A stretch of 64,000 nucleotides of DNA, taken from NCBI RefSeq assembly GCF_056712565.1, contig NZ_CM160072.1, one strand, 5' to 3'. Positions within the stretch are counted from its first letter, which is position 1, and each line of letters begins with the position of its first letter. A program made the translations under genes and the position numbers. Positions 40,722 to 64,000 of this stretch are shown here, in pieces. The notes below the pieces were generated by a model. It was not told the origin of the DNA, did not search any database, and saw nothing but the letters and a program-made list of their open reading frames with translations.

Positions 40722-40761
40722 CTTAGTCAGAGTCCATAACATATTACAGAATGGAGTTGTT

Positions 40762-41409
40762 ATGATTGGTCCTGAATATGTCGTAGTTGTTGGCGTGCTT
40801 AATGCAGGTTTGGTTAGTTTTTTAGGAACAGGTTTTTTTATTTCTAAGGATAAAATAATTACTTCCCGCCATGTTATTAATGGGTTTTCTTCTAACTTAG
40901 TTATTTCTCCATCTAATATAAATAACTTTAATAGTTATCAGGATACAAGTGTTGATAAATTTCAATGTATTGGAGTTGATGTTATTGATGAAGATCCAAT
41001 AAAAGACTTATGTGTGTTAAAAATTAAAAATGCACCTGTTTATGAACCTTGCCTAAAAATTGCTACTCTTGACGATGTTAATGTCGGTGAAGATGTGGGT
41101 ATTTTAGGTTTCCCACATTGTAATGAAAATAGAAAAGTATTGACATTTCAAACGGCAAAAATAGGTGCAAAAGTTTTACTTTCAAGCAGTAATATTCAAT
41201 CTAAACATGCCGTTATAAATATCCAAACCAGACCTGGTCAATCGGGATCGATTGTATTTAATTTAAAAAATGACTCGGTAATAGGCGTCTTGGTTGGCGC
41301 TTATGCAAATAATTCTGGAGGTTCTGTTTTGGTTGGAGGTATTAATCCAGCTGAACTACATCAGACAACTTATGCGGTTTCTGCAGAATATGTTAAGGAT
41401 ATGTTATGA
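40762..41409 (+). CDS. trypsin-like (S1/chymotrypsin-fold) serine protease, stand-alone domain
   Basis: 216 aa from MIGPEYVVVVG... (GGAG RBS); candidate triad His in GTGFFISKDKIITSRHV, Asp in DLCVLKI, Ser in RPGQSGSIVF; about 30% GC. Confidence 0.75.
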   Translation: MIGPEYVVVVGVLNAGLVSFLGTGFFISKDKIITSRHVINGFSSNLVISPSNINNFNSYQDTSVDKFQCIGVDVIDEDPIKDLCVLKIKNAPVYEPCLKIATLDDVNVGEDVGILGFPHCNENRKVLTFQTAKIGAKVLLSSSNIQSKHAVINIQTRPGQSGSIVFNLKNDSVIGVLVGAYANNSGGSVLVGGINPAELHQTTYAVSAEYVKDML

Positions 41410-41852
41410 TTGCTATACCAAATGAAGATGCTGAGTCTTGGTTGTCCACTTTAAAAACGTATCAATCTTCATCTGTCAGGAATTTTCTCGAAAATGGCGA
41501 TGAAGAAAAGGCTCTTGAGCTATGGCTAACTGCATCTGGCCCAAGTTCAGTTGCTCAATTTGGCGGTGATAATTCAAAAATGCCGGGAAGAAAAGCGTTT
41601 GTTGAGCAGTTTAAATTAGAGTTTAAGGCTTTTGTATGTGGAGGTGATAAATATGCAGAGGAGAGGGAATGTTTAGGAGCACTGACTGGTGATGTTAAAA
41701 CATACTTTGTAGGGGTGATCTCTTCGGCAATTGCGGGTTCTTTGGGGGCAACAGCAACATTTATTGCTCCAGCTGTAGTAATTATGTTGATAGCTGTCTC
41801 AAAAATGGGAATTAATGCTTGGTGTTCATTAGAGACAACGACAGAATCTTAG
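41406..41852 (+). CDS. small tail-anchored membrane protein, partner of the protease
   Basis: 148 aa; start overlaps protease stop (ATGA); C-terminal Gly/Ala-rich hydrophobic helix YFVGVISSAIAGSLGATATFIAPAVVIMLIAVS; AT-rich. Confidence 0.6.
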   Translation: MIAIPNEDAESWLSTLKTYQSSSVRNFLENGDEEKALELWLTASGPSSVAQFGGDNSKMPGRKAFVEQFKLEFKAFVCGGDKYAEERECLGALTGDVKTYFVGVISSAIAGSLGATATFIAPAVVIMLIAVSKMGINAWCSLETTTES

Positions 41853-41880: not shown

Positions 41881-42906
41881 TAAATCATAATGCTGAAATC
41901 GGATAGTTTTCTCACCTAACCATTCATTAACTTCCATTATTCTTTTTTGGAGTGGAATTAGTTCATTTCTAACAAAAACCTTACTCGCCTTCTCCACATC
42001 CCCAAACCCTCCAACATTATTAGGCATTATCCCCATCATTTGTGGCGGCACACGATGCGCCGCCATCATGTCGTCCCGGCTCACGTTCTTGATATTCAGG
42101 AACTCATCCTTCGCCGCCACTTCTGACAACGGGATAATCTGAAGCCCGTCCTTTTTACCGTTAGGCGAGTACATAAACAGGTTACGGAAGTTACCAGGAC
42201 CTTTGGCACTTTTCATCGCGTTGCGGAGATTGTTCACATCCTCCTGATTCTGCGCGGCATCGGTCATATACATGATGAAGCCTGCATGGCTGCCGTTGAT
42301 GTAATACTTGCGGCGGAACAGCGTGGCGGACTTATTGAGCAGGGCTGACGGAATGGCAGAAAGATAGCCGGGCAGGCCGTAGATCTCCTGGTTGATGTCC
42401 GGTTCCATCAGATGAAAAATGCTGCCTTTCGTGAACTGATACGGCTGGGTTGTCATACCGTATTGCACAAACCAGTAGGTATCCAGGTCTAACCCGCGTC
42501 GGGTGTATTTTGCCAGCGCAGGATCAAGGGCGATAACTTCACCGAATCGGTTCGTGCGTTTCTCCAGGTAGGCGTTACCAAATACCAGATAGTCCTGCAC
42601 AAAACGCGAAAAAGCCTGCTGGCTGAGCAGCGGATGAGGGATATAGGTACTGGTCAGAATGTTGCACTTTACTGCAATCGGAGAACTGTGATGCACGGCG
42701 GCGCGGAAGGTGCGCGCCAGTCCGTCAAAGCTGACGGGCGGCTCATACCAGCGATCTGTCTGTACGCATTCCACATAGTCCAGCAGTTCACGGCGGTCCA
42801 GAACAGGAACGGGATCACCGAAGCTGAATGCTTCGGCTGAAGTCTGGCTTTTATGCTGGAGCTGGTTCGTCGACGCAGCGCGGTTCTTCTTACTCTTTCC
42901 CATCAA
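41878..42906 (-). CDS. Q: portal protein (P2 gpQ-like)
   Basis: 342 aa; size and position (upstream terminase on the same strand) match P2 Q. Confidence 0.88.
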   Translation of the reverse strand: MMGKSKKNRAASTNQLQHKSQTSAEAFSFGDPVPVLDRRELLDYVECVQTDRWYEPPVSFDGLARTFRAAVHHSSPIAVKCNILTSTYIPHPLLSQQAFSRFVQDYLVFGNAYLEKRTNRFGEVIALDPALAKYTRRGLDLDTYWFVQYGMTTQPYQFTKGSIFHLMEPDINQEIYGLPGYLSAIPSALLNKSATLFRRKYYINGSHAGFIMYMTDAAQNQEDVNNLRNAMKSAKGPGNFRNLFMYSPNGKKDGLQIIPLSEVAAKDEFLNIKNVSRDDMMAAHRVPPQMMGIMPNNVGGFGDVEKASKVFVRNELIPLQKRIMEVNEWLGEKTIRFQHYDL

Positions 42907-44582
42907 AAAATCTCCACAATATTACTGGTATTGGCGGACTCGCCCTGCAGTGGTTCGTTAAACAGTGCGTGCATTGTTGCCCAGGCCAGATCGGCGTGGC
43001 TGGCTTCTTCGCTGCGGCTGGCTTCATAGGTCGGGCGGTTGCCGCTGGCGGTGGTTGCGCGACGGATTGCCATGAATGACTGCGCAATGTCGGTGTGTCC
43101 GGCGTCAAACTCCAGACGGCGGTGGCTGATAATGTCGTAGGCCTTGAGTACCAGGGCGTTTTTAACGTTGGGGTTGTAGACAAACTCCCGGACGGCAGGA
43201 AAGAACGCTTTCACGTTCTCATAAACCCCGTGACCGACACCTGTCGAGTCGATGCCGATATATGTCACGTTGTACTGTTCGGTCAGTTTTTTGATGGCGT
43301 CCGCCTGGGCGCGGAAGTCCATCCCGCGCCACTGGTGACGCTCAAGAATACGGAACTTACCGCCCGGCACGGCTGGCGGAGCCACCACCACGCATCCGGC
43401 ACTGTCGCCGTTCTGCGTACCTTTTGCCGGGTCATAACCGATCCACACTTCGCGCCAGCCAAACGGGCGCAGCGCCAGTGCATGAAAGTCGGTCCAGACT
43501 TCCCAGCTGTCCACCATGCACGCCTGCAATTCGCTGAGCGGGAACACAGATGCGAGATCGTCAACGAACTCGCACATCAGCAGGTTCTGGTATTCGTCCG
43601 GGCTGTACTCCATGCGCAACTGGTCGAGGTCGAACAGGTTACAGCCGCCGCGTACCGCATCTTCCACGGTGACTATCTGGCGGTATTGCCCGTCTGCGCA
43701 CAGCAGGCCGGGGGCCAGATTGCTGTGGGACAGGTCGATGTCCACCTTATCGGCTTTGTTGCGCCCACGGTTGAACAACGCGCCGGACCAGAACGGATAA
43801 GCACTGTGGGTCAGGCTGGATGGCGTGGAAAAATAGGTCTGTCGCCATTTCTTGTGAATAGCCATACCGGAAGCCACTTTGCGCAGCTCCTGAAATTTTG
43901 GTATCCAGAAATATTCATCCAGATACAGGTTGCCGTGATAACTCTGGGCCGTGCGGGCATTGGTGCCTAGGAAGTAAAGCGTGGCCCCGTTAGGAAGCAC
44001 CATCGGATCGCCTTTCAGCTCCACCTCCACTTCTTTGGCGAAGTCGATGATGTACTGCTTAAAGACGTGGGCCTGTGCCTTACTGGCGGAAAGGAAAATC
44101 TGGTTACGCCCGGTAAGCAGAGCGTCAATCAGGGCTTCACGGGCAAAGTAAAAGGTTGCGCCGATCTGGCGTGACTTCAGCAGGTTGCGGATGCGGTTGT
44201 TTTTTCCGGCTTCCCACCAGTGGCGCTGGTAGTTGAACATGGAGGAATGGAAGATTTCTTCCAGCTTCTCAATCTGTTCATCGGTGAAAACGTTCTTTTC
44301 CGGCTGACGGCGCGGGCCTTTGTTGCGGTTGGCGACGTTAGGGTTTAAGTCGGCTTCGTTGCCGCCATTGTTAAACTTGCCGATCCGCGCATGGCGCTCC
44401 GACTGGCGCGCCAGCAGGTCAATCTCTTTGAAATCTTTCCCTTCTTTGTGCTCCTTCATAATGAGCTGGCAGTAGCGTGCGGCGGTGGTGAGCTGCATCT
44501 GATCCAGCGGCCCATAGTCACCCCACTTGTCGCGTTTTTTCCAGCTGTTCCAGTAAGTTTTTTCTAACGGAGCACGGCTCAT
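42903..44582 (-). CDS. P: terminase large subunit (P2 gpP-like)
   Basis: About 559 aa (ORF could extend to 44630 or start later); Walker-type ATPase plus nuclease; overlaps the portal start. Confidence 0.88.
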   Translation of the reverse strand: MSRAPLEKTYWNSWKKRDKWGDYGPLDQMQLTTAARYCQLIMKEHKEGKDFKEIDLLARQSERHARIGKFNNGGNEADLNPNVANRNKGPRRQPEKNVFTDEQIEKLEEIFHSSMFNYQRHWWEAGKNNRIRNLLKSRQIGATFYFAREALIDALLTGRNQIFLSASKAQAHVFKQYIIDFAKEVEVELKGDPMVLPNGATLYFLGTNARTAQSYHGNLYLDEYFWIPKFQELRKVASGMAIHKKWRQTYFSTPSSLTHSAYPFWSGALFNRGRNKADKVDIDLSHSNLAPGLLCADGQYRQIVTVEDAVRGGCNLFDLDQLRMEYSPDEYQNLLMCEFVDDLASVFPLSELQACMVDSWEVWTDFHALALRPFGWREVWIGYDPAKGTQNGDSAGCVVVAPPAVPGGKFRILERHQWRGMDFRAQADAIKKLTEQYNVTYIGIDSTGVGHGVYENVKAFFPAVREFVYNPNVKNALVLKAYDIISHRRLEFDAGHTDIAQSFMAIRRATTASGNRPTYEASRSEEASHADLAWATMHALFNEPLQGESANTSNIVEIF

Positions 44583-45930
44583 GACAGTGAAAGCAAAGCG
44601 TTTTCGCATCGGGGTGGAAGGTGCCACCACCGACGGACGCGAAATCCAGCGTGAATGGCTGGAACAGATGGCAGCCAGCTACAACCCGGCGGTGTATACC
44701 GCGCTGATTAACCTTGAGCACATCAAGTCTTATATACCGGACAGCACCTTTAACCGCTACGGCAAGGTGACGGCGCTGTTTGCTGAAGAAATCACGGAAG
44801 GTCCGCTGGCAGGCAAGATGGCGCTGTATGCCGACGTTGAGCCAACGGAGTCCCTGGTGGAACTGGTGAAAAAAGGCCAGAAATTATTCACCTCTATGGA
44901 AGTCAGCCCGAAGTTCGCTGATACGGGCAAAGCCTACCTGGTCGGCCTGGCTGCCACTGATGACCCTGCCAGTCTGGGTACGGAAATGCTGACATTCAGC
45001 GCCAGTGCAGCCCATAACCCGCTGGCAAACCGCAAGCAGAATCCTGCCATGACTGAGCAGTCCGGTCAGCTGCTGGGGCTGGGTGTTGGCAGCACCATTG
45101 CCGGAACCACTGACACCACCGCAAAAGAGCGTGAACCTGTCGATCCGACGCTGATGGTCGATGTGGAATATAAATGCGAGCAGACCAACTTTGACACGGT
45201 GCTGACCTACGCGAAGCTGGACCTGTGGGCGAAGTTTCAGGATTTCCAGGTGCGTATCCGTGACGCCATCGTGAAACGTCAGGCACTGGACCGCATCATG
45301 ATCGGCTTTAACGGCGTGAAGCGTGCGAAAACCTCCAACCGTAGTGAAAACCCGCTGCTGCAGGATGTGAACAAAGGCTGGCTGCAGAAAATCCGTGAGG
45401 ATGCACCGGATCACGTCATGGGCAGCACCACCACGGGCGGCGAAACCACACCGGGTGCGGTGAAAGTCGGTAAAGGGGGCGAATATGCCAACTTGGACGC
45501 TGTGGTGATGGATGCGGTCAATGAGCTTATCGACGTGGTCTACCAGGACGATGACGATCTGGTGGTGATTTGCGGTCGTGAACTGCTGTCTGACAAGTAT
45601 TTCCCGCTGGTCAACAAAGAGCAGGAAAACAGTGAAAAATTGGCAGCCGATATGATTATCAGTCAGAAACGCATGGGCGGTCTGCAGGCCGTGCGTGCGC
45701 CGTTCTTCCCGCCGAATGCGCTGCTGATCACCCGTCTGGATAACCTGTCCATCTACTGGCAGGAAGACACCCGCCGCCGTTCAGTTATCGACAACCCGAA
45801 ACGTGACCGGATTGAAAACTTTGAATCCGTTAACGAAGCCTATGTGGTTGAGGACTACCGCTGCGCCGCACTGGTGGAAAACATCCAGATTGGTGATTTC
45901 AGCGCCGCCGCAGCCGAAACCGGAGCGTAA
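44581..45930 (+). CDS. scaffold/protease (gpO-like N-terminus) fused in frame to major capsid (gpN-like) C-terminal region
   Basis: 449 aa; N-terminus FRIGVEGATTDGR...TSMEVSPKFADTGKAYLVGLAATDDPASLGTE resembles gpO; C-terminus YKCEQTNFD...LDLWAKFQDFQVRIRDAI...GFNGVKRA resembles gpN; interval is about 0.65 kb shorter than the O+N pair in P2. Confidence 0.65.
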   Translation: MTVKAKRFRIGVEGATTDGREIQREWLEQMAASYNPAVYTALINLEHIKSYIPDSTFNRYGKVTALFAEEITEGPLAGKMALYADVEPTESLVELVKKGQKLFTSMEVSPKFADTGKAYLVGLAATDDPASLGTEMLTFSASAAHNPLANRKQNPAMTEQSGQLLGLGVGSTIAGTTDTTAKEREPVDPTLMVDVEYKCEQTNFDTVLTYAKLDLWAKFQDFQVRIRDAIVKRQALDRIMIGFNGVKRAKTSNRSENPLLQDVNKGWLQKIREDAPDHVMGSTTTGGETTPGAVKVGKGGEYANLDAVVMDAVNELIDVVYQDDDDLVVICGRELLSDKYFPLVNKEQENSEKLAADMIISQKRMGGLQAVRAPFFPPNALLITRLDNLSIYWQEDTRRRSVIDNPKRDRIENFESVNEAYVVEDYRCAALVENIQIGDFSAAAAETGA

Positions 45931-45933
45931 TCC

Positions 45934-54527: not shown

Positions 54528-55930
54528 GCACAAAATTTTATACCCTGCTGACGGATATTGGCGCGGCGAAACTCGCCAGCGCCGCCGCGCTCGGTGTGCC
54601 TTTAAAAATTACCCATATGGCGGTCGGCGATGGCGGCGGAACATTGCCAACGCCGGACGCCAAGCAGACAGCATTGGTAAATGAGAAACGCCGGGCTGCG
54701 CTGAATATGCTCTATATCGACCCGCAGAACAGCAGCCAGATTATTGCTGAACAGGTGATCCCTGAAAATGAGGGTGGTTGGTGGATACGTGAAGTGGGCC
54801 TGTTTGATGAGTCCGGGGTATTGATTGCCGTGGGAAACTGCCCGGAAAGCTATAAGCCGCAACTGGCTGAAGGCAGCGGGCGTACCCAGACCGTGCGCAT
54901 GGTGCTGATTACCAGCAGTACGGACAATATCACCCTGAAAATCGACCCTGCTGTAGTACTGGCAACTCGCAAGTATGTGGATGATAAGGCACTGGAGCTG
55001 AAGGTGTATGTGGATGACCAAATGGCAAAACACCTTGCCGCAGCGGACCCACATTCACAGTATGCGCCAAAAGCCAGCCCGATATTTACCGGAACCCCCA
55101 AAGCGCCGACGCCAGCGGCGGGGAATAATACCACGCAACTTGCGACCACCGCGTTTGTTCAGGCGGCACTGACGGCCCTTATTAATGGTGCGCCAGCCAC
55201 GCTGGACACGCTAAAAGAAATAGCCGCAGCCATTAACAATGATCCGAAATTCAGTACCACCATTAACAATGCGCTGGCACTGAAAGCGCCGCTGTCGAGT
55301 CCGGCACTCACCGGAACGCCAACAGCCCCTACTGCCGCACAGTCGGTTAACAATACACAGATTGCCACTACGGCTTTTGTGAAATCGGCGATTGCAGCAA
55401 TGGTGGGGTCTGCACCTGCGGCACTGGATACATTGAACGAACTGGCGGCGGCGCTGGGGAATGACCCGAACTTTGCCACGACAATGCTTAATGCGCTAGC
55501 AGGTAAACAACCGCTGGACAATACGCTGACTAATTTGAGTGGAAAGGATGTTGCTGGTCTTCTCGCATACCTTGGTTTAGGAGAAGCGGCGAAAAGGGAT
55601 GTGGGCACAGGAGATAATCAGATACCGGATATGTCTTTCTGGTCTTCCGCATCGGGTGGCGTTAATTTCCCTAATGGATTCCAGATGCGATTCGGTGCTA
55701 TCGCTGGTAATGGTGGAAAATTATTTTCTACGCCATTTACAAATCAGTGCTATGGCATTGTTTTCGGACAAACATATGGAGCCAACTACTGGATGTTCAG
55801 CCCGATGTACAGAGCATCTGATCTGAGTAATACCAGTTTTGCATTCATTAACAAAGCCTGGTCTGGAATTCCGGGGACAGGTGCTCAGGACGCTGGTGAA
55901 TCAGTTTTTTATATTGCAGTAGGGTATTAA
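54524..55930 (+). CDS. H: tail fibre protein (gpH-like); C-terminal part lies inside the invertible segment
   Basis: 468 aa; repeated motif TTQLATTAFV / NTQIATTAFV and PxLTGTPTAPT repeats; crossover site inside the gene at 55560–55585. Confidence 0.85.
   Translation: MSTKFYTLLTDIGAAKLASAAALGVPLKITHMAVGDGGGTLPTPDAKQTALVNEKRRAALNMLYIDPQNSSQIIAEQVIPENEGGWWIREVGLFDESGVLIAVGNCPESYKPQLAEGSGRTQTVRMVLITSSTDNITLKIDPAVVLATRKYVDDKALELKVYVDDQMAKHLAAADPHSQYAPKASPIFTGTPKAPTPAAGNNTTQLATTAFVQAALTALINGAPATLDTLKEIAAAINNDPKFSTTINNALALKAPLSSPALTGTPTAPTAAQSVNNTQIATTAFVKSAIAAMVGSAPAALDTLNELAAALGNDPNFATTMLNALAGKQPLDNTLTNLSGKDVAGLLAYLGLGEAAKRDVGTGDNQIPDMSFWSSASGGVNFPNGFQMRFGAIAGNGGKLFSTPFTNQCYGIVFGQTYGANYWMFSPMYRASDLSNTSFAFINKAWSGIPGTGAQDAGESVFYIAVGY
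55560..55585. promoter_or_regulatory. DNA invertase crossover site (left), within tail fibre gene
   Basis: TTCTCGCATACCTTGGTTTAGGAGAA; 21/26 identical to the reverse complement of the site at 57351–57376, 14 bp perfect. Confidence 0.6.
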
Positions 55931-55931
55931 T

Positions 55932-56375
55932 ATGGAAATGGTTTATAGCGCCTCAAATAATAGTTTTTTCGCTAAAAATGATGTGGCGAAATATGAACAG
56001 GCCGGATGGGAACTTGCTGATATTGTCGAAGTGACATATGACACTTACCTGGAATTTATTGAAGACAGAACGTTGCAAGGGAAAGTACGCATCGCGGGTG
56101 ATGATGGCCTTCCCACCTGGGGGGAAATTCCACCGCCAACTCATGAGGAACAAATTGCCGCAGCCGAACTGGAAAAGCAGCAATTGATTAATCAGGTCAA
56201 CGAATACATATACAGTAAGCAATGGCCTGGTAAAGCAGCGATTGGTCGCCTGAAAGGTGAGGAACTGGCGCAATATAATTTGTGGCTGGATTATCTGGAC
56301 GCACTGGAACTGGTTGATACCTCCAGTGCTCCAGATATTGAATGGCCTACGCCTCCGGCAGTTCAGGCCAGATGA
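55932..56375 (+). CDS. tail fibre assembly protein
   Basis: 147 aa; C-terminal LDYLDALELVDTSSAPDIEWP motif shared with the convergent paralog. Confidence 0.8.
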   Translation: MEMVYSASNNSFFAKNDVAKYEQAGWELADIVEVTYDTYLEFIEDRTLQGKVRIAGDDGLPTWGEIPPPTHEEQIAAAELEKQQLINQVNEYIYSKQWPGKAAIGRLKGEELAQYNLWLDYLDALELVDTSSAPDIEWPTPPAVQAR

Positions 56376-56949
56376 CGTCCGGCGCTGTGCTGGTATCTGT
56401 TGCCGTCACCGCATCAATGTAATCCAGCACAGCGTTAAGTCGGGTGTTTTCTGTCTGCGTCAGCTTCCGCCCGGCCTGCAATTTCAGTTGAATCAGACTA
56501 ATGGAAGCCATTGCAGTATCAATCAGTGACTGACGCTGTGCTTCTGCCGCGTCTAGTGTGGCGCTATGCTGTGCCTCAGTATCTGTCACCCATTTCTCAC
56601 CATCCCATTCATCGTATGGCGTTAACGGGGCGATAGTGGTTGTATTTTCAGGGTAATCACCTGGTGCTGTGATTTCTTTTGATTCTCCTGTTTCGGTGCT
56701 AAAAACGATTTCACCGCGATGGTCTGGCACATATTCCCATGAGTTAAAATCTGCAGAACGGCAGATTGCATAACCAGCTTTACATGTAACTGGTGAATCT
56801 AAACAGGAATATGCAGGGATACCGACACCAATGGCAAGATATTCATTTGAAGTAGAAATATATTCCCGAGTTTTACCATCATAGTTATAGACGGTAATAT
56901 TCCCCGCCTTCGTGGCAATAATCTCGCTATTTAATACGGCGTTATCCAT
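56347..56949 (-). CDS. tail fibre assembly protein (alternative, opposite orientation)
   Basis: 200 aa; C-terminal LDYIDAVTATDTSTAPDVIWP. Confidence 0.75.
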   Translation of the reverse strand: MDNAVLNSEIIATKAGNITVYNYDGKTREYISTSNEYLAIGVGIPAYSCLDSPVTCKAGYAICRSADFNSWEYVPDHRGEIVFSTETGESKEITAPGDYPENTTTIAPLTPYDEWDGEKWVTDTEAQHSATLDAAEAQRQSLIDTAMASISLIQLKLQAGRKLTQTENTRLNAVLDYIDAVTATDTSTAPDVIWPELPEA

Positions 56950-57404
56950 TATGCAGCCCTTACGATATAGTTAAATGCAATATTTCGTGGACGGGTTTCG
57001 CTTCCGCCATATGATGATGTAAATCCCGAATATGCCCGGTGTCCCGCATCCGTCGTATTAGCCCAGGAAGGACCGCTAGAAGTATAGATGACCCCATTGT
57101 AATCATGGCCGTGTGCCTCAATGCTCCCGTCCTGAGCAGACAGGAGAGTCCGTCCTGAATCAATTCCTCTTCCATCATCCCACCCACGAATGAATTCGCC
57201 GCGTAAATCTGGCAATTTATTTGTCGGATAAACTTTTGCCAGTTCCGGATACTCTTCGGCAGAAAAAGCTGCACCGTTGCATTTCAGCCAGCCTGTTGGC
57301 GGTGTGACTGAAGGCCACGGAACAGGCACACCTACGGGTAATGCAGAGCCTTCTCCTAAACCAACGTTTAAGAAAATGCAGCGATTACGACTAACTGGCA
57401 TCAT
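56949..57404 (-). CDS. alternative tail fibre C-terminal segment (silent in this orientation)
   Basis: 151 aa ORF whose 5' end contains the right crossover site and encodes VGLGEGS, matching YLGLGEAA at the left site in H. Confidence 0.65.
   Translation of the reverse strand: MMPVSRNRCIFLNVGLGEGSALPVGVPVPWPSVTPPTGWLKCNGAAFSAEEYPELAKVYPTNKLPDLRGEFIRGWDDGRGIDSGRTLLSAQDGSIEAHGHDYNGVIYTSSGPSWANTTDAGHRAYSGFTSSYGGSETRPRNIAFNYIVRAA
57351..57376. promoter_or_regulatory. DNA invertase crossover site (right)
   Basis: TTCTCCTAAACCAACGTTTAAGAAAA, imperfect dyad; inverted relative to 55560–55585. Confidence 0.6.
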
Positions 57405-57431
57405 CCCCGGTTTTTATTCAAGGAGATGATC

Positions 57432-57998
57432 ATGCTTATTGGCTATGTACGCGTGTCAACAAATGACCAGAACACCGATTTGCAACGTAGTGCGCTGAAC
57501 TGCGCGGGATGTGAGCGGATTTTTGAGGACAAAATCAGTGGCACTAAGTCCGACAGACCGGGGCTTAAAAAACTGCTCAGGACACTATCGGCAGGTGACA
57601 CACTGGTTGTCTGGAAGCTGGACAGGTTGGGGCGCAGTATGCGGCATCTTGTTACGCTGATAGAAGAGTTGCGCCAGCGCGGCGTGAATTTCCGAAGTCT
57701 GACTGACAGTATTGATACCAGTACCCCAATGGGCAGTTTCTTTTTTCATGTCATGGGTGCCCTGGCTGAAATGGAACGCGAACTGATAGTTGAACGTACC
57801 AGGGCAGGGCTGGCTGCAGCTCGTGCTAAAGGCAGAGTAGGTGGACGCCGTCCTAAGTTGACTACCGAACAGTGGGCACAGATTGGGCGTTTACTCGAGG
57901 CCGGAGAATCAAGACAGCGTATTGCACTGATTTTTGATGTAGGCGTTTCTACCATTTATAGAAAATTTCCGGCAAATAAGAGCAATGAATCTCCCTGA
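57432..57998 (+). CDS. serine recombinase, Hin/Gin/Pin-type DNA invertase
   Basis: About 188 aa; MLIGYVRVSTNDQNTDLQ with catalytic Ser, resolvase domain plus C-terminal HTH (VSTIYRKF). Confidence 0.9.
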   Translation: MLIGYVRVSTNDQNTDLQRSALNCAGCERIFEDKISGTKSDRPGLKKLLRTLSAGDTLVVWKLDRLGRSMRHLVTLIEELRQRGVNFRSLTDSIDTSTPMGSFFFHVMGALAEMERELIVERTRAGLAAARAKGRVGGRRPKLTTEQWAQIGRLLEAGESRQRIALIFDVGVSTIYRKFPANKSNESP

Positions 57999-58046
57999 AT
58001 CAGCTTTATTTTGATTATCCCTGAAAGCAGACAAATACCGTCATTT

Positions 58047-58064
58047 TGTGTGAATAACGGTACA
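58047..58064 (+). promoter_or_regulatory. late promoter activator site (TGT-N12-ACA) upstream of the sheath gene
   Basis: TGTgtgaataacggtACA centred about 85 bp upstream of the FI start; CAGGAGG RBS at 58125. Confidence 0.5.
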
Positions 58065-58140
58065 ACTGCGCTTAGCTGTTTGTCAGGCACAATCACTTCA
58101 ACATAGGGCGAAGCCTAATCCAATCAGGAGGTTCGCCACT

Positions 58141-59313
58141 ATGGCTCAGGATTACCACCACGGAGTGCGCGTTGTTGAAGTCAACGAAGGCACCCGATCC
58201 ATTACCACGGTGAGCACCGCCATCGTGGGTATGGTCTGCACGGGCGATGATGCCGATGCAAAAATGTTTCCTCTTAATAAACCCGTGCTGATCACTGATG
58301 TGCTGACTGCCAGCGGTAAAGCGGGCGAGTCCGGTACGCTGGCCCGTTCGCTGGATGCCATCGCTGACCAGGCAAAACCCGTGACCGTTGTTGTGCGTGT
58401 GCCGCAGGGTGAAACGGAAGAAGAAACCACGACCAATATCATCGGCGCAGTGACTGCTGAAGGTAAAAAAACAGGCATGAAAGCCCTGTTATCTGCCCAG
58501 TCACAGCTCGGCGTTAAACCGCGCATTCTCGGCGTGCCAGGTCACGACACGAAGGCGGTAGCTACTGAGTTGCTGAGCGTGGCGCAAAGCCTGCGTGGAT
58601 TTGCTTACCTGTCAGCGTATGGTTGCAAGACGGTGCAGGAAGCAATCACTTACCGTGAAAACTTCAGTCAGCGTGAAGGAATGCTGATCTGGCCCGACTT
58701 TACTGGCTGGGACACGGTGCTGAATGCCGAAGCAACGGCTTATGCCACCGCCCGTGCGCTTGGTCTGCGCGCCAAAATTGACGAGCAGACCGGATGGCAC
58801 AAAAGCCTGTCCAACGTAGGCGTTAACGGTGTCACCGGAATTTCTGCTGATGTGTTCTGGGATCTGCAGGACCCGGCAAGCGATGCGGGACTGCTGAACC
58901 AGAACGACGTCACCACCCTTATCCGCAAAGACGGTTTTCGCTTCTGGGGTTCCCGCTGCCTGAGTGATGACCCGCTCTTTGCCTTCGAAAACTACACCCG
59001 CACGGCGCAGGTGCTGACGGACACAATGGCAGAAGCGCACATGTGGGCAGTGGACAAACCGCTGAACCCGTCGCTGGCGCGCGACATTATCGAGGGCATC
59101 CGCGCCAAAATGCGCAGCCTGGTCAGTCAGGGGTATCTCATTGGTGGTGATTGCTGGCTGGATGAGTCGGTGAACGACAAAGACACTCTGAAAGCCGGAA
59201 AACTCACCATCGACTACGACTACACGCCAGTGCCGCCACTTGAAAACCTGATGTTGCGTCAGCGCATCACCGATCAGTACCTGGTGAATTTCGCCAGCCA
59301 GGTCAGCGCGTAA
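58141..59313 (+). CDS. FI: contractile tail sheath protein (P2 gpFI-like)
   Basis: 390 aa; size and position before the tube gene. Confidence 0.88.
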
Positions 59314-59322
59314 GGGGACAAC

Positions 59323-59838
59323 ATGGCTTTACCACGCAAATTAAAACACCTGAACCTGTTTAACGACGGGAACAACTGGCAGGGGATCGTTGAGTCGCTG
59401 ACGCTGCCGAAATTCACCCGCAAATATGAGAAGTATCGCGGCGGCGGAATGCCGGGGGCAGTGGATGTGGATCTGGGGCTTGATGACAGTGCGCTGGACA
59501 CAGAATTTTCCATTGGTGGTACTGAACTGCTGCTGTTTAAGCAGATAGGCAAAGCCACGGTGGATGGCATCCAGTTGCGCTTTACCGGCTCTATCCAGCG
59601 TGACGATACCGGGGAAGTGCAGGCCGTGGAGCTTGTGGTGCGTGGACGTCACAAAGAAGTGGATTCCGGTGAGTGGAAGACGGGCGAAAGCAACACCACC
59701 AAAGTGACCAGTACCAACAGCTACGCGAAGCTGACCATCAATGGTGAGGTGCTCTATGAAGTGGACCTTATCAACATGGTGGAAATTGTGGACGGTGTGG
59801 ACCTGATGGAAGCGCACCGCAACGCTCTCGGCCTCTGA
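59323..59838 (+). CDS. FII: tail tube protein (P2 gpFII-like)
   Basis: 171 aa. Confidence 0.88.
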   Translation: MALPRKLKHLNLFNDGNNWQGIVESLTLPKFTRKYEKYRGGGMPGAVDVDLGLDDSALDTEFSIGGTELLLFKQIGKATVDGIQLRFTGSIQRDDTGEVQAVELVVRGRHKEVDSGEWKTGESNTTKVTSTNSYAKLTINGEVLYEVDLINMVEIVDGVDLMEAHRNALGL

Positions 59839-59892
59839 TGTATCTGAACGGCGCGGAATGCCGCGCCAGAACCCAATTTACAGGACAACAAA

Positions 59893-60195
59893 ATGAGCGA
59901 TAAGCAGACTGAAAAGACCATTCAACTGGATACCCCTATCAAGCGCGGTAAAACAGAAATTACCGAAATTGTGCTGCGTAAACCGCAGTCCGGTGCGCTG
60001 CGCGGTACACGCCTGCAGGCCATTATGGATATGGATGTGAACGCGATGATGACCGTGATCCCCCGCATCTCCAGTCCGGCACTGACTGCACAGGAAATTG
60101 CAGAGATGGACCCGGCAGATCTCACTGCCATGTCGGTTGAGGTTGTCACTTTTTTGTTGAAGAAGTCGGTGCTTGCCGGTTTACCGACAGCCTGA
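59893..60195 (+). CDS. E: tail assembly chaperone (gpE-like)
   Basis: 100 aa; contains slippery site near its 3' end. Confidence 0.8.
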   Translation: MSDKQTEKTIQLDTPIKRGKTEITEIVLRKPQSGALRGTRLQAIMDMDVNAMMTVIPRISSPALTAQEIAEMDPADLTAMSVEVVTFLLKKSVLAGLPTA

Positions 60196-60328
60196 CGGTT
60201 GACGATCTGGTGGCTGATATCGCCACCATCTTTCACTGGCCGCCATCCGTTACTGACGTTATGGCGCTGACCGAAGTGCTGGAATGGCGGTATAAAGCGA
60301 TTCAGAGAAGCGGGGCCAACGATGAGTG
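59893..60328 (+). CDS. gpE+E' -1 frameshift product (tail chaperone extension)
   Basis: Slippery heptamer T_TTT_TTG at 60150–60156; the -1 frame stays open to a TGA at 60326–60328, overlapping the tape-measure start at 60322. Confidence 0.6.
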
Positions 60329-63300
60329 ATAATAACCTGCGCCTGCAGGTCATTCTTAATGCGGTTGACAAACTCACCCGCCCATTCCGTGCTGCACAGG
60401 CCAGTTCGAAAGAGCTGGCTGGCGCAATTCAGAATACCCGAAACAGCCTCAAAGAACTGAATAAGCAGGCTGGCAGAATTGATGAATTTCGCAAGACGCG
60501 CTCGCAACTAGCCATAACAGCCAACAACCTGAACGCAGCCCGCGAAGAGGCGGCAAAACTCGCCACACAATTTGCTGCCACTAACAGGCCAACCGCCGCG
60601 CAGGCAAAGTTATTCAGTCAGGCCAAAACACGAGTACAGGAACTTCAGCAGACCTATAACGGCTTGTTGGGGGCGGTCCAAAGACAACGTCAGGCACTTA
60701 AAGAATCAGGGATTGATACCAGACAACTCAGTAGTGCCCAGCGAGAACTTAAGAAAAATGCTGAAGAAACAAGGCAGGCACTGGAGGGTCAGCAAAAAGC
60801 ACTTAAACGTCTGGGTGAACAACAGGCACGGATGAACGCTGCCAGAGAACAATACTCAAGACGGCTTGAAGTGCGCGATCGCATCGCAGGAGCCGGAGCC
60901 ACTACCACGGCTGCAGGGCTGGCAATGGGTGCGCCAGTGATGGCGGCAGTAAAAAGCTATACCAGCATGGAAGATGCCATGAAAGGTGTGGCAAAGCAGG
61001 TCAATGGTCTGCGTGACGATAATGGCAACCGCACTGTACGTTTTTATGAAATGCAGGATGCCATCAAGGCTGCCAGCGAACAGTTGCCGATGGAAAACGG
61101 TGCGGTGGACTTCGCTGCACTGGTTGAAGGTGGTGCGCGCATGAACGTCGCAAACCCTGACGACAGCTGGGAAGACCAGAAACGTGACCTGCTGGCCTTC
61201 GCCAGTACGGCAGCAAAGGCGGCAACAGCCTTTGAGCTGCCAGCGGATGAACTGTCAGAAAGTCTGGGGAAAATCGCCCAGCTCTACAAAATACCTACCC
61301 GCAATATTGAACAGCTCGGCGATGCACTGAACTATCTGGATGATAACGCCATGTCGAAAGGGGCGGACATCATTGATGTGATGCAACGTCTGGGCGGTGT
61401 GGCTGACCGTCTGGATTATCGTAAAGCGGCGGCACTGGGTTCCACCTTTCTGACACTGGGCGCTGCGCCGGAGGTTGCAGCCAGTGCAGCAAACGCGATG
61501 GTGCGTGAATTGTCCATTGCCACCATGCAAAGCAAGAGTTTCTTTGAAGGGATGAATCTGCTGAAACTCAATCCTGAAGTGATTGAAAAGCAGATGACGA
61601 AGGATGCGATGGGAACTATCCAGCGTGTGCTGGAGAAGGTGAACGCACTGCCGCAGGACAAGCGTCTGTCTGCCATGACCATGTTGTTTGGTAAAGAGTT
61701 TGGTGATGACGCGGCGAAACTGGCAAACAACCTTCCGGAACTGCAGCGCCAGCTAAAACTGACAGCGGGCAATGATGCGCTCGCTTCCATGCAGAAAGAA
61801 TCCGACATTAACAAGGACTCACTTTCTGCGCAGTGGTTGCTGATCAAAACCGGAGCGCAGAACACCTTCAGCAGCCTGGGCGAGACGCTGCGCCAGCCGC
61901 TGATGGATATTCTGTACACGGTGAAAAGCATCACGGGGGCGTTGCGCCGCTGGGTGGAAGCTAACCCGGGACTGACAGGCACACTGATGAAAGTAGCCGC
62001 TGTGGTGGCTGCGGTTACCGTAGGCCTCGGCACCTTAGCGGTAGCGCTGGCTGCAGTGCTGGGGCCGCTGGCAGTGATCCGTCTGGGATTCTCTGTGCTG
62101 GGTATCAAAACGTTACCTTCCGTTACGGCAGCAGTAACTCGAACCAGCAGCGCGTTGTCCTGGCTGGCTGGCGCACCACTGGCACAGCTGCGACGCGGGC
62201 TTGCTTCATCGGGCAACGCCGCGGGTTTACTTACTGCGCCGTTGTCGTCTTTGCGCCGCACGGCATCACTGACGGGAAATGTCCTGAAAACTGTAGCAGG
62301 TGCGCCGGTTGCACTGTTGCGGTCTGGATTATCCGGTTTACGTGCGGTTGCTGTGATGTTTATGAATCCACTGGCAGCACTACGCGGTGGACTGACCGCC
62401 GCAGGCGCGGTGCTGCGAGTACTGGCATCTGGTCCACTGGCGATGTTGCGCGTTGCCCTGTATGCCGTATCTGGTCTGTTAGGTGCTCTGCTTAGTCCAA
62501 TAGGTCTTGTGGTTACAGCACTGGCGGGTGTGGCACTGGTTGTCTGGAAATACTGGCAACCCATCACCGCATTTCTCGGTGGCGTGGTGGAAGGATTCAA
62601 AGCAGCGGCTGGTCCCGTCAGTGCCGCATTCGAACCACTTAAGCCTGTGTTCCAGTGGATTGGCGACAAAGTGCAGGCGTTGTGGGGCTGGTTTACTGAT
62701 CTGCTGACGCCCGTTAAGTCGACCTCTGCTGAACTGCAGAGCGCAGCGGCAATGGGGCAACGATTCGGGGAGGCACTGGCGGAAGGACTGAATATGGTCA
62801 TGCATCCGCTGGACTCCCTGAAATCCGGCGTATCCTGGTTGCTGGAAAAACTCGGCATTGTCAGTAAAGAGGCCGCAAAGGCAAAACTGCCGGAACGCGT
62901 GACGCGTCAGCAACCTGCGACGGTGAATGCAGACGGCAAAGTGATGATGCCATCGGGTGGTTTTCCGTCATGGGGATATGGCTTTGCGGGGATGTATGAC
63001 AGCGGCGGCTATATCCCGCGCGGGCAGTTTGGCATCGTCGGTGAAAACGGGCCGGAAATTGTTAACGGCCCGGCAAATGTGACCAGCCGGAAAAATACCG
63101 CTGCACTGGCTGCTGTTGTTGCCGGAATGATGGGCGTTGCTGCCGCGCCTGCAGAGCTTCCACCGTTACATCCTTTGGCACTTCCCGCGAAAGGCGGCGA
63201 AGCGATGGTGAGTCGTGCAGCCACTGTGCCGCCCGTTCAACGGATTGAGGCACCGACGCAGATCATCATTCAGACGCAGCCAGGACAAAGTGCGCAGGAT

Positions 63301-63399
63301 ATTGCGCGGGAGGTGGCCCGTCAGCTTGATGAACGTGAACGCAGGCTGAAGGCAAAAGCCAGGAGTAACTACAGCGATCAGGGGGGATACGACGCATGA
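60322..63399 (+). CDS. T: tail tape measure protein (gpT-like)
   Basis: 1025 aa; coiled-coil N-terminus, Gly/Ala-rich hydrophobic central segments. Confidence 0.9.
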   Translation: MSDNNLRLQVILNAVDKLTRPFRAAQASSKELAGAIQNTRNSLKELNKQAGRIDEFRKTRSQLAITANNLNAAREEAAKLATQFAATNRPTAAQAKLFSQAKTRVQELQQTYNGLLGAVQRQRQALKESGIDTRQLSSAQRELKKNAEETRQALEGQQKALKRLGEQQARMNAAREQYSRRLEVRDRIAGAGATTTAAGLAMGAPVMAAVKSYTSMEDAMKGVAKQVNGLRDDNGNRTVRFYEMQDAIKAASEQLPMENGAVDFAALVEGGARMNVANPDDSWEDQKRDLLAFASTAAKAATAFELPADELSESLGKIAQLYKIPTRNIEQLGDALNYLDDNAMSKGADIIDVMQRLGGVADRLDYRKAAALGSTFLTLGAAPEVAASAANAMVRELSIATMQSKSFFEGMNLLKLNPEVIEKQMTKDAMGTIQRVLEKVNALPQDKRLSAMTMLFGKEFGDDAAKLANNLPELQRQLKLTAGNDALASMQKESDINKDSLSAQWLLIKTGAQNTFSSLGETLRQPLMDILYTVKSITGALRRWVEANPGLTGTLMKVAAVVAAVTVGLGTLAVALAAVLGPLAVIRLGFSVLGIKTLPSVTAAVTRTSSALSWLAGAPLAQLRRGLASSGNAAGLLTAPLSSLRRTASLTGNVLKTVAGAPVALLRSGLSGLRAVAVMFMNPLAALRGGLTAAGAVLRVLASGPLAMLRVALYAVSGLLGALLSPIGLVVTALAGVALVVWKYWQPITAFLGGVVEGFKAAAGPVSAAFEPLKPVFQWIGDKVQALWGWFTDLLTPVKSTSAELQSAAAMGQRFGEALAEGLNMVMHPLDSLKSGVSWLLEKLGIVSKEAAKAKLPERVTRQQPATVNADGKVMMPSGGFPSWGYGFAGMYDSGGYIPRGQFGIVGENGPEIVNGPANVTSRKNTAALAAVVAGMMGVAAAPAELPPLHPLALPAKGGEAMVSRAATVPPVQRIEAPTQIIIQTQPGQSAQDIAREVARQLDERERRLKAKARSNYSDQGGYDA

Positions 63400-63881
63400 T
63401 GATGGTGCTGGGATTGTACGTGTTTATGCTGCGCACCGTGCCGTATCAGGAGCTGCAGTATCAACGCAGCTGGCGACATGCGGCAAACAGCAGGGTAAAC
63501 CGTCGTCCGTCCACGCAGTTTCTGGGACCGGAAAACGACATGCTGACGCTTTCCGGTGTTCTTATGCCGGAGATAACAGGCGGCAGGCTGTCGTTACTGG
63601 CACTGGAGCAGATGGCAGAACAGGGGAAAGCATGGCCCCTGATTGAAGGAAGCGGCACGATTTACGGCATGTATGTGATTGAGGGACTGAATCAGACTAA
63701 AACGGAGTTTTTCCGCGACGGTATGCCGCGCCGGATTGAGTTCACCCTGTCGCTAAAACGGGTGGATGAATCCCTGTCCGATATGTTCGGTGATCTCAGT
63801 ACTCAACTGAATAATCTGCAGGACACGGCAACGTCTGCTTTAAGCGATATCAGTAAAACGGTTGGAGGGCTGCTGTCGTGA
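63396..63881 (+). CDS. U: tail protein (gpU-like)
   Basis: 161 aa; follows T with overlapping start. Confidence 0.85.
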   Translation: MMMVLGLYVFMLRTVPYQELQYQRSWRHAANSRVNRRPSTQFLGPENDMLTLSGVLMPEITGGRLSLLALEQMAEQGKAWPLIEGSGTIYGMYVIEGLNQTKTEFFRDGMPRRIEFTLSLKRVDESLSDMFGDLSTQLNNLQDTATSALSDISKTVGGLLS

Positions 63882-64000
63882 ATTTCAGCTCTGAACTGCT
63901 TAACAAAAGCAACAAAACTCCGGCATTCAGCATCAGTATTGCAGGCAAGGATATCACCACTGTGCTGGACAACCGCCTGATGGGGCTTACGCTGACGGAT
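63878..64000 (+). CDS. D: tail protein gpD-like, partial (continues beyond window)
   Basis: ORF opens at GTG overlapping the U stop (VNFSSELLNKSNKTPAF...) and runs to the window edge. Confidence 0.6.
   Translation, partial: MNFSSELLNKSNKTPAFSISIAGKDITTVLDNRLMGLTLTD

Follow-up and report, generated by a model that had tools for sequence, protein, structure and literature searches.

Inversion switches that exchange the tips of tail fibres are known from several phages and prophages. In the P segment of the e14 element of K-12 with its invertase PinE, the genes are laid out as stfP-tfaP / tfaE-stfE / pinE. In the G segment of Mu (invertase Gin) and the C segment of P1 (invertase Cin), the fibre N-terminus lies outside, two tip-plus-chaperone cassettes oppose each other within, and the invertase gene sits just outside; these segments are 3.0 kb and 4.2 kb long, respectively. 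The Salmonella H segment is inverted by Hin, which flips a promoter and has its own gene inside the segment. Its Fis-dependent enhancer is about 100 bp from one site, hixL, with 47 bp between the centres of the Fis sites (PMC3798978). Among P2-like prophages, flipping has been shown by sequencing and PCR in those of EPEC E2348/69, one of which has three repeats and four states (PMC4272514). For Salmonella Fels-2, a fin invertase and a 2.7-kb invertible fragment are mentioned in a passage of PMC3535392 that cites Kutsukake 2006.

The locus described here lies in a window of 64 kb, by which we mean the whole stretch of DNA analysed. Our reading, to which we give a probability of about 90%, is that it is a two-state inversion switch of the Din family (Gin/Cin/Pin/Hin type) acting on the tail fibre gene of a 186-like prophage. 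Its gene order and orientation are identical to those of the e14 P segment, and it shares with e14 the TT/AA site cores, the G-L-G-E junction, a segment of about 1.8 kb and a 29-bp overlap of the chaperone genes. The surroundings differ: the e14 element is lambdoid and defective, and its fibre is only a short stub (StfP, 209 aa), whereas here a P2-type gpH forms part of an entire P2/186 tail operon. StfP and TfaP are also no more than distant relatives of tip A and its chaperone. The outside N-terminus, the opposed cassettes, the adjoining invertase gene and the 26-bp site layout are as in Mu and P1, although both of those segments are longer than the 1793 bp here. Hin has the invertase family and the 26-bp sites in common with the locus; however, the locus switches a coding fusion, and its invertase gene lies outside the segment.

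The preliminary description of this DNA held the module to be worth noting in a P2/186-like tail region. It turns out not to be unusual there, since the same arrangement is present in classified Peduoviridae and the EPEC flipping and the Fin system of Fels-2 are on record. Cartapus, pro483 and a P2 relative (O157:H43 T22) carry the same module between gpI and the sheath gene FI, with left sites nearly identical to that of the locus (TTCTCGCATACCTTGGTTTGGGAGAA). The Cartapus invertase is 98.9% identical to the one here (2 differences in 188 aa). Cartapus covers 53% of the query, and the combinations of tips vary among P2-like phages.

The prophage is 186-like (Peduoviridae) and is integrated in E. 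coli between rcdA and ybjL. Its closest phage records are Peduoviridae. The gene set and order, read from the RefSeq annotation of a near-identical prophage, are of the P2 type (Q P O N M L X, lysis, R S, V W J I H, FI FII E T U D, ogr), and there is a 186-type CI/CII/Fil early region. In the window's copy, two deletions in the head genes, one affecting gpP and the other gpO-gpN, damage gpP, gpO and gpN. That copy is probably defective, and in the window's host these deletions may leave the switch without infectious particles whose fibres it could change. Since the deletions are unique to the window among 5,426 complete genomes, we regard them as recent decay and not as domestication. Sister strains carry the fibre gene within a late tail operon that is complete, in a P2-family prophage that is otherwise intact. 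Copies of the late-promoter dyad TGT-N12-ACA are no more frequent in the window than expected (13 against 15); two of them are well placed.

The invertible segment is bounded by two crossover sites. The left site (55560-55585, plus strand; TTCTCGCATACC-TT-GGTTTAGGAGAA) lies inside gpH, where it reads L-A-Y-L-G-L-G-E, and the right site is at 57351-57376 (plus strand; TTCTCCTAAACC-AA-CGTTTAAGAAAA). Direct comparison of the left site with the reverse complement of the right gives 21/26 identity, including a perfect inner stretch of 14 bp, TTGGTTTAGGAGAA, just as the preliminary description had proposed. Each site has the layout 12-2-12, with imperfect half-sites of 12 bp around a 2-bp core, and the TT and AA cores agree only when the sites are aligned in inverted orientation. 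A repeat search over 54000-59500 ranked their arms (55560-55586 and 57350-57376; 27 nt, 81% complementary) first in length among the inverted repeats. The same 5.5 kb holds further inverted repeats of 22-28 nt at 71-77%, so that the length of this one, taken alone, is barely above chance. The statistical strength of the sites comes instead from the site pattern. With up to 3 mismatches, the Din-type pattern TTCTCNNAAACCNNGGTTTNNGAGAA is found at just these two sites in 64 kb, with 0.00 expected from 100 shuffles. Allowing up to 5 mismatches revealed no third crossover site in the 64 kb, and a multi-site shufflon, as in one EPEC prophage or p15B, is thereby ruled out; the locus has two sites and two states.

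The sites also align properly with known members of the family. Reference pix, cix and gix sites, cut out of the e14, P1 and Mu records along the boundaries annotated there, have the same 12-2-12 layout with matching cores; pix, cix and the locus have TT/AA cores, whereas the gix core is TC/GA. The left site is identical to e14 pixL at 22/26 positions and the right site to pixR at 24/26. Both sites are read in frame (...YLGLGE-AAKRD on the plus strand and ...NVGLGE-GSALPV on the minus strand), in agreement with the shared G-L-G-E junction claimed earlier, and either tip joins the constant part of gpH in frame at L-G-L-G-E.

Within the segment are two convergent cassettes, each consisting of a fibre tip and a chaperone gene. 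The present gpH fusion (54524-55930, plus strand, 468 aa) matches PHROG tail fibre families, and its residues 1-150 match the phage tail-collar fibre N-terminal family of Pfam (PF12571, E=8e-65); in an identical locus, RefSeq names it "phage tail protein". Its constant part (54524-55571, plus) is outside the invertible segment, the left site falls in frame within the gene, and the C-terminal tip A (55574-55930, plus) is inside. Tip A is followed by its own tail fibre assembly chaperone (55932-56375, plus, 147 aa; PHROG 188, E=5e-57), which is 56% identical to e14 TfaP over 105 aa. On the opposite strand is the silent tip B cassette (56949-57362, minus), an alternative C-terminus for gpH with a Collar domain and 61% identity to e14 StfE. 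It is followed by a second assembly chaperone (56347-56949, minus, 200 aa; PHROG 105, E=2e-95), which is 88% identical to TfaE over 200 aa. The open reading frames thus place the 3' end of gpH with one chaperone and the alternative C-terminus with another on opposite strands, as had been described. The 29-bp overlap of the two convergent chaperone genes is kept in e14 and in four P2-like modules. The tips were compared with S/S' of Mu and P1 for what this might say about the receptor, and no significant similarity emerged. Neither tips nor chaperones resemble the Mu and P1 proteins significantly, except weakly at the C-termini of the chaperones and over a central portion of P1 S. A search of five proteins against NCBIfam gave nothing for the fibre and chaperone proteins and only sub-threshold hits for the invertase.

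As a mechanically called frame, tip B runs from 56949 to 57404 (minus), extending past the cassette, and has no fibre N-terminus. When the segment is inverted in silico, tip B joins gpH in frame to give an uninterrupted protein of 487 aa that matches the Pfam Collar domain (PF07484, E=1.6e-13). This fused fibre gene, 1464 nt long, is annotated in strain SF-468. The earlier proposal that inversion would swap the tip of the fibre is borne out to that extent.

Both orientations are present in public complete genomes. Three complete E. coli genomes contain the orientation of the window as a single uninterrupted match of 3617 nt at 100%. The locus flipped in silico matches at 100% over the same length in five, with two further genomes matching at a slightly lower bit score. 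In the wider family (complete E. coli genomes with at least 80% query cover), 78 genomes have the native orientation and 112 the flipped one. SF-468 harbours this prophage, integrated at the same point of the chromosome, with flanks of about 10.5 kb and 6.65 kb at 99.99-100% identity. Only 55572-57367 is reversed there, and the outer half-sites are unchanged. The natural breakpoints fall within 55572-55586 and 57350-57364, i.e., inside the sites. The same sequence therefore exists in both orientations, and the segment has flipped in nature by exchange at the sites. Since both orientations are found among genomes with no nucleotide difference over 3617 nt (eight in all), these flips are younger than any substitution.

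The gene adjoining the segment (57432-57998, plus, 188 aa) encodes a small serine recombinase, as the preliminary description had recognized; members of this class have about 190 aa, with the nucleophilic serine in an N-terminal catalytic domain and a helix-turn-helix at the C-terminus. The frame can start at 57426 or 57432; the ATG at 57432 is preceded, at a distance of 6 nt, by AGGAG, and the RefSeq start agrees with that choice. Residues 1-184 align with the structure of Mu Gin (3UJ3, E=2.9e-91), with the motif YVRVSTNDQ and the nucleophilic Ser9 conserved. The protein matches PHROG 125, DNA invertase (E=2e-99), and is 84% identical to PinE, 76% to Cin and 73% to Gin. These alignments support its assignment as an invertase of the Gin/Cin/Pin family. 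In Hin, the residues proposed to contact Fis are Gln151, Arg154 and Leu155 (PMC3798978). With an offset of Hin = Gin + 1, inferred in this analysis, their equivalents here would be Q150, R153 and L154, which are invariant with PinE, Gin and Cin. A simple scan of 57200-58200 gave no candidate sigma-70-like promoter upstream of the gene.

That the resident invertase catalyzed the natural flips is something we infer, and its sequence offers one reason for doubt. It carries N20S and R102S, at two positions that show no variation among PinE, Gin, Cin, Cartapus, pro483 and the P2 relative, the six used for comparison. The best phage invertase is 98.4% identical, and no phage relative is identical. 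Such an enzyme could be weakened, with another Din invertase, Pin-like and encoded by another prophage, flipping the segment mainly or only in trans. To our knowledge, neither position is catalytic in serine recombinases, and literature look-ups found no role for the Hin/Gin residue equivalent to R102. Action in trans has precedents: the P segment of e14 is inverted by PinQ (PMC12529663), and a passage of PMC3535392 cites Fin as inverting the H segment. In addition, APEC 16-1068 has three places that match the query. However, the reading frame is intact, with Ser9 and all the other invariant residues present, and the same allele is found in all eight of the 100%-identical genomes, in both orientations. 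We consider flipping in trans possible but unlikely.

For a two-state switch driven by the resident invertase, an enhancer would be expected by analogy with hin and cin. The preliminary description had suggested looking for one in the 5' region of the invertase gene. There, 57450-57521 (plus) can be aligned gap-free with the P1 cin enhancer as annotated, which likewise lies in the 5' end of its invertase gene (nt +19 to +90), and we designate it a putative recombinational enhancer. It contains two Fis-like 15-mers, at 57454-57468 (TGTCAACAAATGACC) and 57502-57516 (GCGCGGGATGTGAGC), both on the plus strand. They are 48 bp apart, at the same positions as in pinE, gin and cin, and their centres are 97.5 and 145.5 bp from the core of the right site. 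The nearer distance, about 97 bp, compares with about 100 bp for the Hin enhancer. Synonymous sites in the stretch are no more conserved than in the rest of the invertase gene, with fractions of identical codons that are inconsistent across pairs (0.73 v 0.54, 0.56 v 0.44, 0.38 v 0.45). For that reason, it is homology and the position of the motifs that point to the putative Fis sites.

The anatomy of the locus, the family membership of its invertase and sites, and the in-frame fusion are observations; how the switch operates is proposed on the model of Hin, Gin and Cin, which are homologous systems. Invertase dimers would bind both 26-bp sites, and host Fis, on the putative enhancer near the start of the invertase gene, would assist the inversion. 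Staggered cuts would be made at the central dinucleotides, 55572-73 and 57363-64, and rotation followed by religation of the ends would flip the 1793 bp. The N-terminal 349 codons of gpH, being outside the segment, would be transcribed from the late operon. In the orientation of the window, this constant part would be joined to tip A and followed by its chaperone; in the alternative state, it would be joined to tip B, with its Collar domain, and followed by the TfaE-like chaperone. A population of lysogens would then yield two kinds of particle, each with its own receptor specificity, presumably changing host range.

There is a small chance that the flip has a role beyond phage host range. One orientation of this cassette, a close relative of the one in e14, might yield a product that shields the lysogen from other phages, or the N20S/R102S allele might have brought altered control of the invertase (enhancer independence or attenuation). 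Taken with the head-gene deletions of the window's copy, the locus might be evolving toward a phase-variable tail or tailocin module retained by the host. The more specific proposal that a flip in the lysogen serves the host through a chimeric fibre fragment that blocks adsorption of other phages has a chance that is smaller again. Its model is e14, where StfE2, made when the P segment inverts, is reported to prevent T2 from adsorbing (PMC12529663), and the likeness extends to tip B and its chaperone, to sites nearly identical to pix, and to a prophage copy that looks head-defective. However, the e14 effect required overproduction of PinQ, and the scan described above turned up no lysogen-active promoter. 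The complete tail operon in the otherwise intact prophages of sister strains and the recent date of the head deletions also speak against it.

We think it very improbable that the locus has lost the ability to invert and survives as a frozen relic, the orientations in the databases being old events. Related modules are indeed decaying, with an invertase frameshifted in p13P477T-2 and one truncated to 165 aa in the P2 relative from O157:H43, and the window's own prophage has lost head gene sequence. But the absence of any nucleotide difference between the orientations, the essentially identical prophage flanks, and sites, invertase and enhancer stretch that are all intact argue against it. Finally, inverted repeats can in principle give rise to assembly artefacts or RecA-dependent recombination, but this deserves almost no credence as the source of the polymorphism, given that the repeats share only 14-15 identical bases, too short to mislead long-read assembly or drive efficient homologous recombination, that both breakpoints map precisely to the inner arm and core of Din-pattern sites beside a Din invertase, and that ten independent complete genomes are involved.

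The tail fibre switch favored here is of an ordinary type, already known, including in P2-like prophages. Its value is mainly in annotation, and the understanding of DNA invertases and of tail fibre switching is unchanged by it. Genes annotated as an orphan "phage tail protein", "hypothetical protein" or "gp53-like domain-containing protein" beside the invertase are silent fibre-tip cassettes, neither separate genes nor pseudogenes. A 1.8-kb inversion distinguishes assemblies of one and the same prophage; it can be mistaken for structural variation or inflate pangenome gene counts. Host-range prediction for P2-like phages should take both tips into account.

The strongest result on whether the segment beside the invertase gene flips is that both of its orientations occur in nature. 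Three complete E. coli genomes match the locus in the window's native orientation (54524-58140) as a single alignment, 100% identical along its entire 3617 nt. An in-silico flipped copy is matched in one piece at 100% by five other complete genomes and, at a slightly lower bit score, by two further ones. A match of at least 80% query coverage needs the middle segment on the strand of its flanks and is therefore orientation-specific; on that measure, the wider family divides into 78 native versus 112 flipped genomes. At the population level, then, the single orientation that would have spoken against a switch is not what is seen. SF-468 carries the prophage at the same chromosomal site (rcdA...ybjL), and its proteins, the invertase among them, have the same accessions. 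Compared with the window, 45046-55586 and 57350-64000 run direct at 99.99-100%, and 55572-57367 is reversed. The outer half-sites of the flipped genome are identical to those of the window. This places the exchange inside the inner arm and core, which the two sites share, where cutting at the central dinucleotide would be expected to put it. The mechanism is classical inversion by the Din family (Gin, Cin, Pin and Hin-type serine invertases), and the flips postdate every substitution in the locus.

Between 54000 and 59500, the longest inverted repeat has arms at 55560-55586 and 57350-57376 (27 nt, 81% complementary). Its length alone stands only modestly over background because repeats of 22-28 nt at 71-77% are present by chance in the same 5.5 kb. 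The decisive point for the reality of the sites is the site pattern, not the repeat length. The Din-type pattern TTCTCNNAAACCNNGGTTTNNGAGAA, searched with at most 3 mismatches over the whole 64-kb window, has two matches, both at these sites, with 0.00 expected from 100 shuffles; even at 5 mismatches, no third site appears in the 64 kb. The left site (55560-55585) is TTCTCGCATACCTTGGTTTAGGAGAA with core TT, and the right site (57351-57376), as its reverse complement, is TTTTCTTAAACGTTGGTTTAGGAGAA with core AA on the given strand. They agree at 21/26 positions, the inner (last) 14 perfectly, so the inverted 26-bp sites of the preliminary description are real. Both have a 12-2-12 layout, and since the central dinucleotides are TT and AA, the cores match only in inverted alignment.

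The records of Mu, P1 and MG1655 supplied reference sites, which the same pattern search locates at the annotated segment boundaries. Left and right, they are CTCTCGAAAACC-TT-GGTTTGGGAGAA and TTCTCCCAAACC-AA-CGTTTATGAAAA for e14 pix, CAATCCTAAACC-TT-GGTTTAAGAGAA and TTCTCTTAAACC-AA-GGTATTGGATAA for P1 cix, and TTATCCAAAACC-TC-GGTTTACAGGAA and TTCCTGTAAACC-GA-GGTTTTGGATAA for Mu gix. The left site is identical to pixL at 22/26 positions and the right site to pixR at 24/26; the sites thus do align with known crossover sites.

The gpH tail fibre (54524-55930, plus strand, 468 aa) has an N-terminus matching Pfam PF12571 (E=8e-65), and a Pfam search of its tip A found no domain. Chaperone A (55932-56375, plus) matches the PHROG 188 tail-fibre assembly protein (E=5e-57). 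On the minus strand are chaperone B (56347-56949; PHROG 105 tail-fibre assembly protein, E=2e-95) and the tip B cassette (56949-57404; Collar domain PF07484, E=1.6e-13). The end of each tip gene adjoins or overlaps the 5' end of the chaperone gene that belongs to it, which makes each cassette a co-expressed pair. The G-L-G-E junction said to be shared by the two sites is in frame at both: ...AGLLAYLGLGE/AAKRDV on the plus strand at the left site, and ...IFLNVGLGE/GSALPV on the minus strand at the right. In-silico inversion of 55572-57364 (1793 bp) yields an uninterrupted fibre of 487 aa.

The invertase (57432-57998, plus; AGGAG 6 nt 5' of the start) can be aligned with Mu Gin from one end to the other (PDB 3UJ3, E=2.9e-91) and keeps the YVRVSTNDQ motif and Ser9. 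It shares 84% identity with e14 PinE, 76% with P1 Cin and 73% with Mu Gin, as befits the Hin/Gin type first proposed. Q150, R153 and L154 are conserved; by our own numbering offset, they would be the counterparts of Hin Gln151, Arg154 and Leu155, proposed Fis contacts (PMC3798978). The counterpart of the enhancer that the P1 record marks in cin (nt +19 to +90) is 57450-57521, where four invertase genes align without gaps. A scan for Fis-type 15-mers finds two motifs at equal positions in all four, T[G/A]TCAACAAATGA[C/A]C at +23 and G[C/T]GC[A/G]GGATG[T/C]GA[G/A]C at +71. They are 48 bp apart, with centres 97.5 and 145.5 bp from the right core in the window; in hin, the Fis-site centres are 47 bp apart and ~100 bp from hixL (PMC3798978). 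The protein is also at its most conserved in the part encoded by 57450-57521, and identity at synonymous codons among the invertase genes is not consistently higher in this stretch, so the putative enhancer would be present by homology only.

Only two residues set the invertase apart from its Cartapus counterpart, N20S (codon 57489-57491) and R102S (57735-57737). These positions are invariant (N, R) in six relatives: PinE, Gin, Cin, pro483, Cartapus and a P2 relative (phage 'P2' from O157:H43 T22). Gin R102, by our own mapping, presumably lies at the start of helix E and corresponds to position 105 of Tn3/gamma-delta resolvase. No phage record searched has an identical invertase, the best match being 98.4% identical. 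Given these changes at invariant positions and the lack of an identical phage protein, the segment may be flipped with help from, or by, another Din invertase in trans; action of this kind is on record within the family (PMC12529663; PMC3535392). The N20S/R102S allele itself is found in genomes of both orientations.

The element belongs to the P2 family and is 186-like. The early region has integrase, CI, CII and Fil; replication and accessory genes include a gpA-type replication endonuclease, Dam and a DinI-like gene. The structural and late genes are portal, terminase, gpO, the P2-family capsid protein and lysis genes, with R, S, V, W, J, I, H, then FI, FII, E, T, U, D and ogr; the H operon and FI are separated by a gap, which the invertible module fills. 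TGT-N12-ACA is the site through which Ogr/Delta activates late promoters in the P2 family; dyads of this form lie at 58047-58064, ~80-90 nt 5' of the FI start (58141), and at 52035-52052, just upstream of gpV (about 52100); the window as a whole is not enriched for them (13 observed, 15 expected). A 652-aa AAA ATPase (49966-51924, plus) is encoded between gpS and gpV, a position used for cargo in P2-like phages; its gene is intact in the window and SF-468, but in APEC 16-1068 it is broken into two. Its best PADLOC matches, AriA (E=1e-21), Old (E=2e-11) and ATPase-Toprim families, point to a probable anti-phage gene of the OLD/PARIS-like kind. At about 40760-41852 (plus), an S1-family peptidase gene, with a 148-aa gene (41406-41852) after it and beside the portal gene, makes up a second cargo or defence locus; PDC-M35B, a candidate defence family, is matched by the 148-aa protein (E=4e-58).

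The prophage of APEC 16-1068 and SF-468 is otherwise nearly identical to the window's copy but has 231 bp and 554 bp that are missing here. The former deletion (44548/44549) removes the first ~41 terminase ATPase codons and the gpP/gpO intergenic (promoter) region. The latter (about 45049/45050, with a 4-nt GCCA microhomology) joins gpO residues 1-156 to capsid gpN from about residue 61 in one 449-aa ORF. The ORFs at the deletions are 42903-44630 (minus) and 44581-45930 (plus). Both deletions are absent from all 5,426 of 5,426 complete E. coli genomes. This copy probably cannot make heads, and the switch may therefore lack an infectious particle to act on in this host; tail module and switch are intact.

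The observation is thus confirmed and its interpretation supported, but, contrary to the earlier view, finding it in a P2/186-like tail module is not noteworthy, as an invertible tail-fibre module of this kind is already known. The same module is annotated in the same place in Elveevirus cartapus, Peduovirus pro483 and Peduovirus magyaro (all classified Peduoviridae), whose left sites are near-identical to the window's. Goldberg et al. showed switching by sequencing and PCR within clonal cultures of EPEC E2348/69, in two P2-like prophages, one locus two-state and the other with three repeats and four states (PMC4272514). Salmonella Fels-2 has fin together with an invertible fragment of 2.7 kb (PMC3535392, citing Kutsukake 2006). 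A host-level role for the flip, like the function reported for e14 StfE2 (PMC12529663), strikes us as very improbable.

In e14, gene order, sites, junction peptide and a 29-bp convergent chaperone overlap are the same as in the window, with TfaE 88% and StfE 61% identical to their counterparts. The locus is in essence an e14-type (Pin) cassette system on a P2-type fibre shaft. The sites of the P2 relative (L010, 2842-2867 and 4703-4728) are perfect 26-bp inverted repeats and its invertase is truncated to 165 aa; the invertase of the plasmid-like prophage p13P477T-2 (L001, 5961-6519) is frameshifted. Both exemplify locked switches within the same family. The chaperone overlap (56347-56375) has the Trp-Pro codons (TGGCCT ... 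AGGCCA) of both C-termini placed symmetrically on opposite strands, and overlap and sequence are kept in e14, Cartapus, pro483, the P2 relative and p13P477T-2. It may be a joint for cassette exchange between phages.
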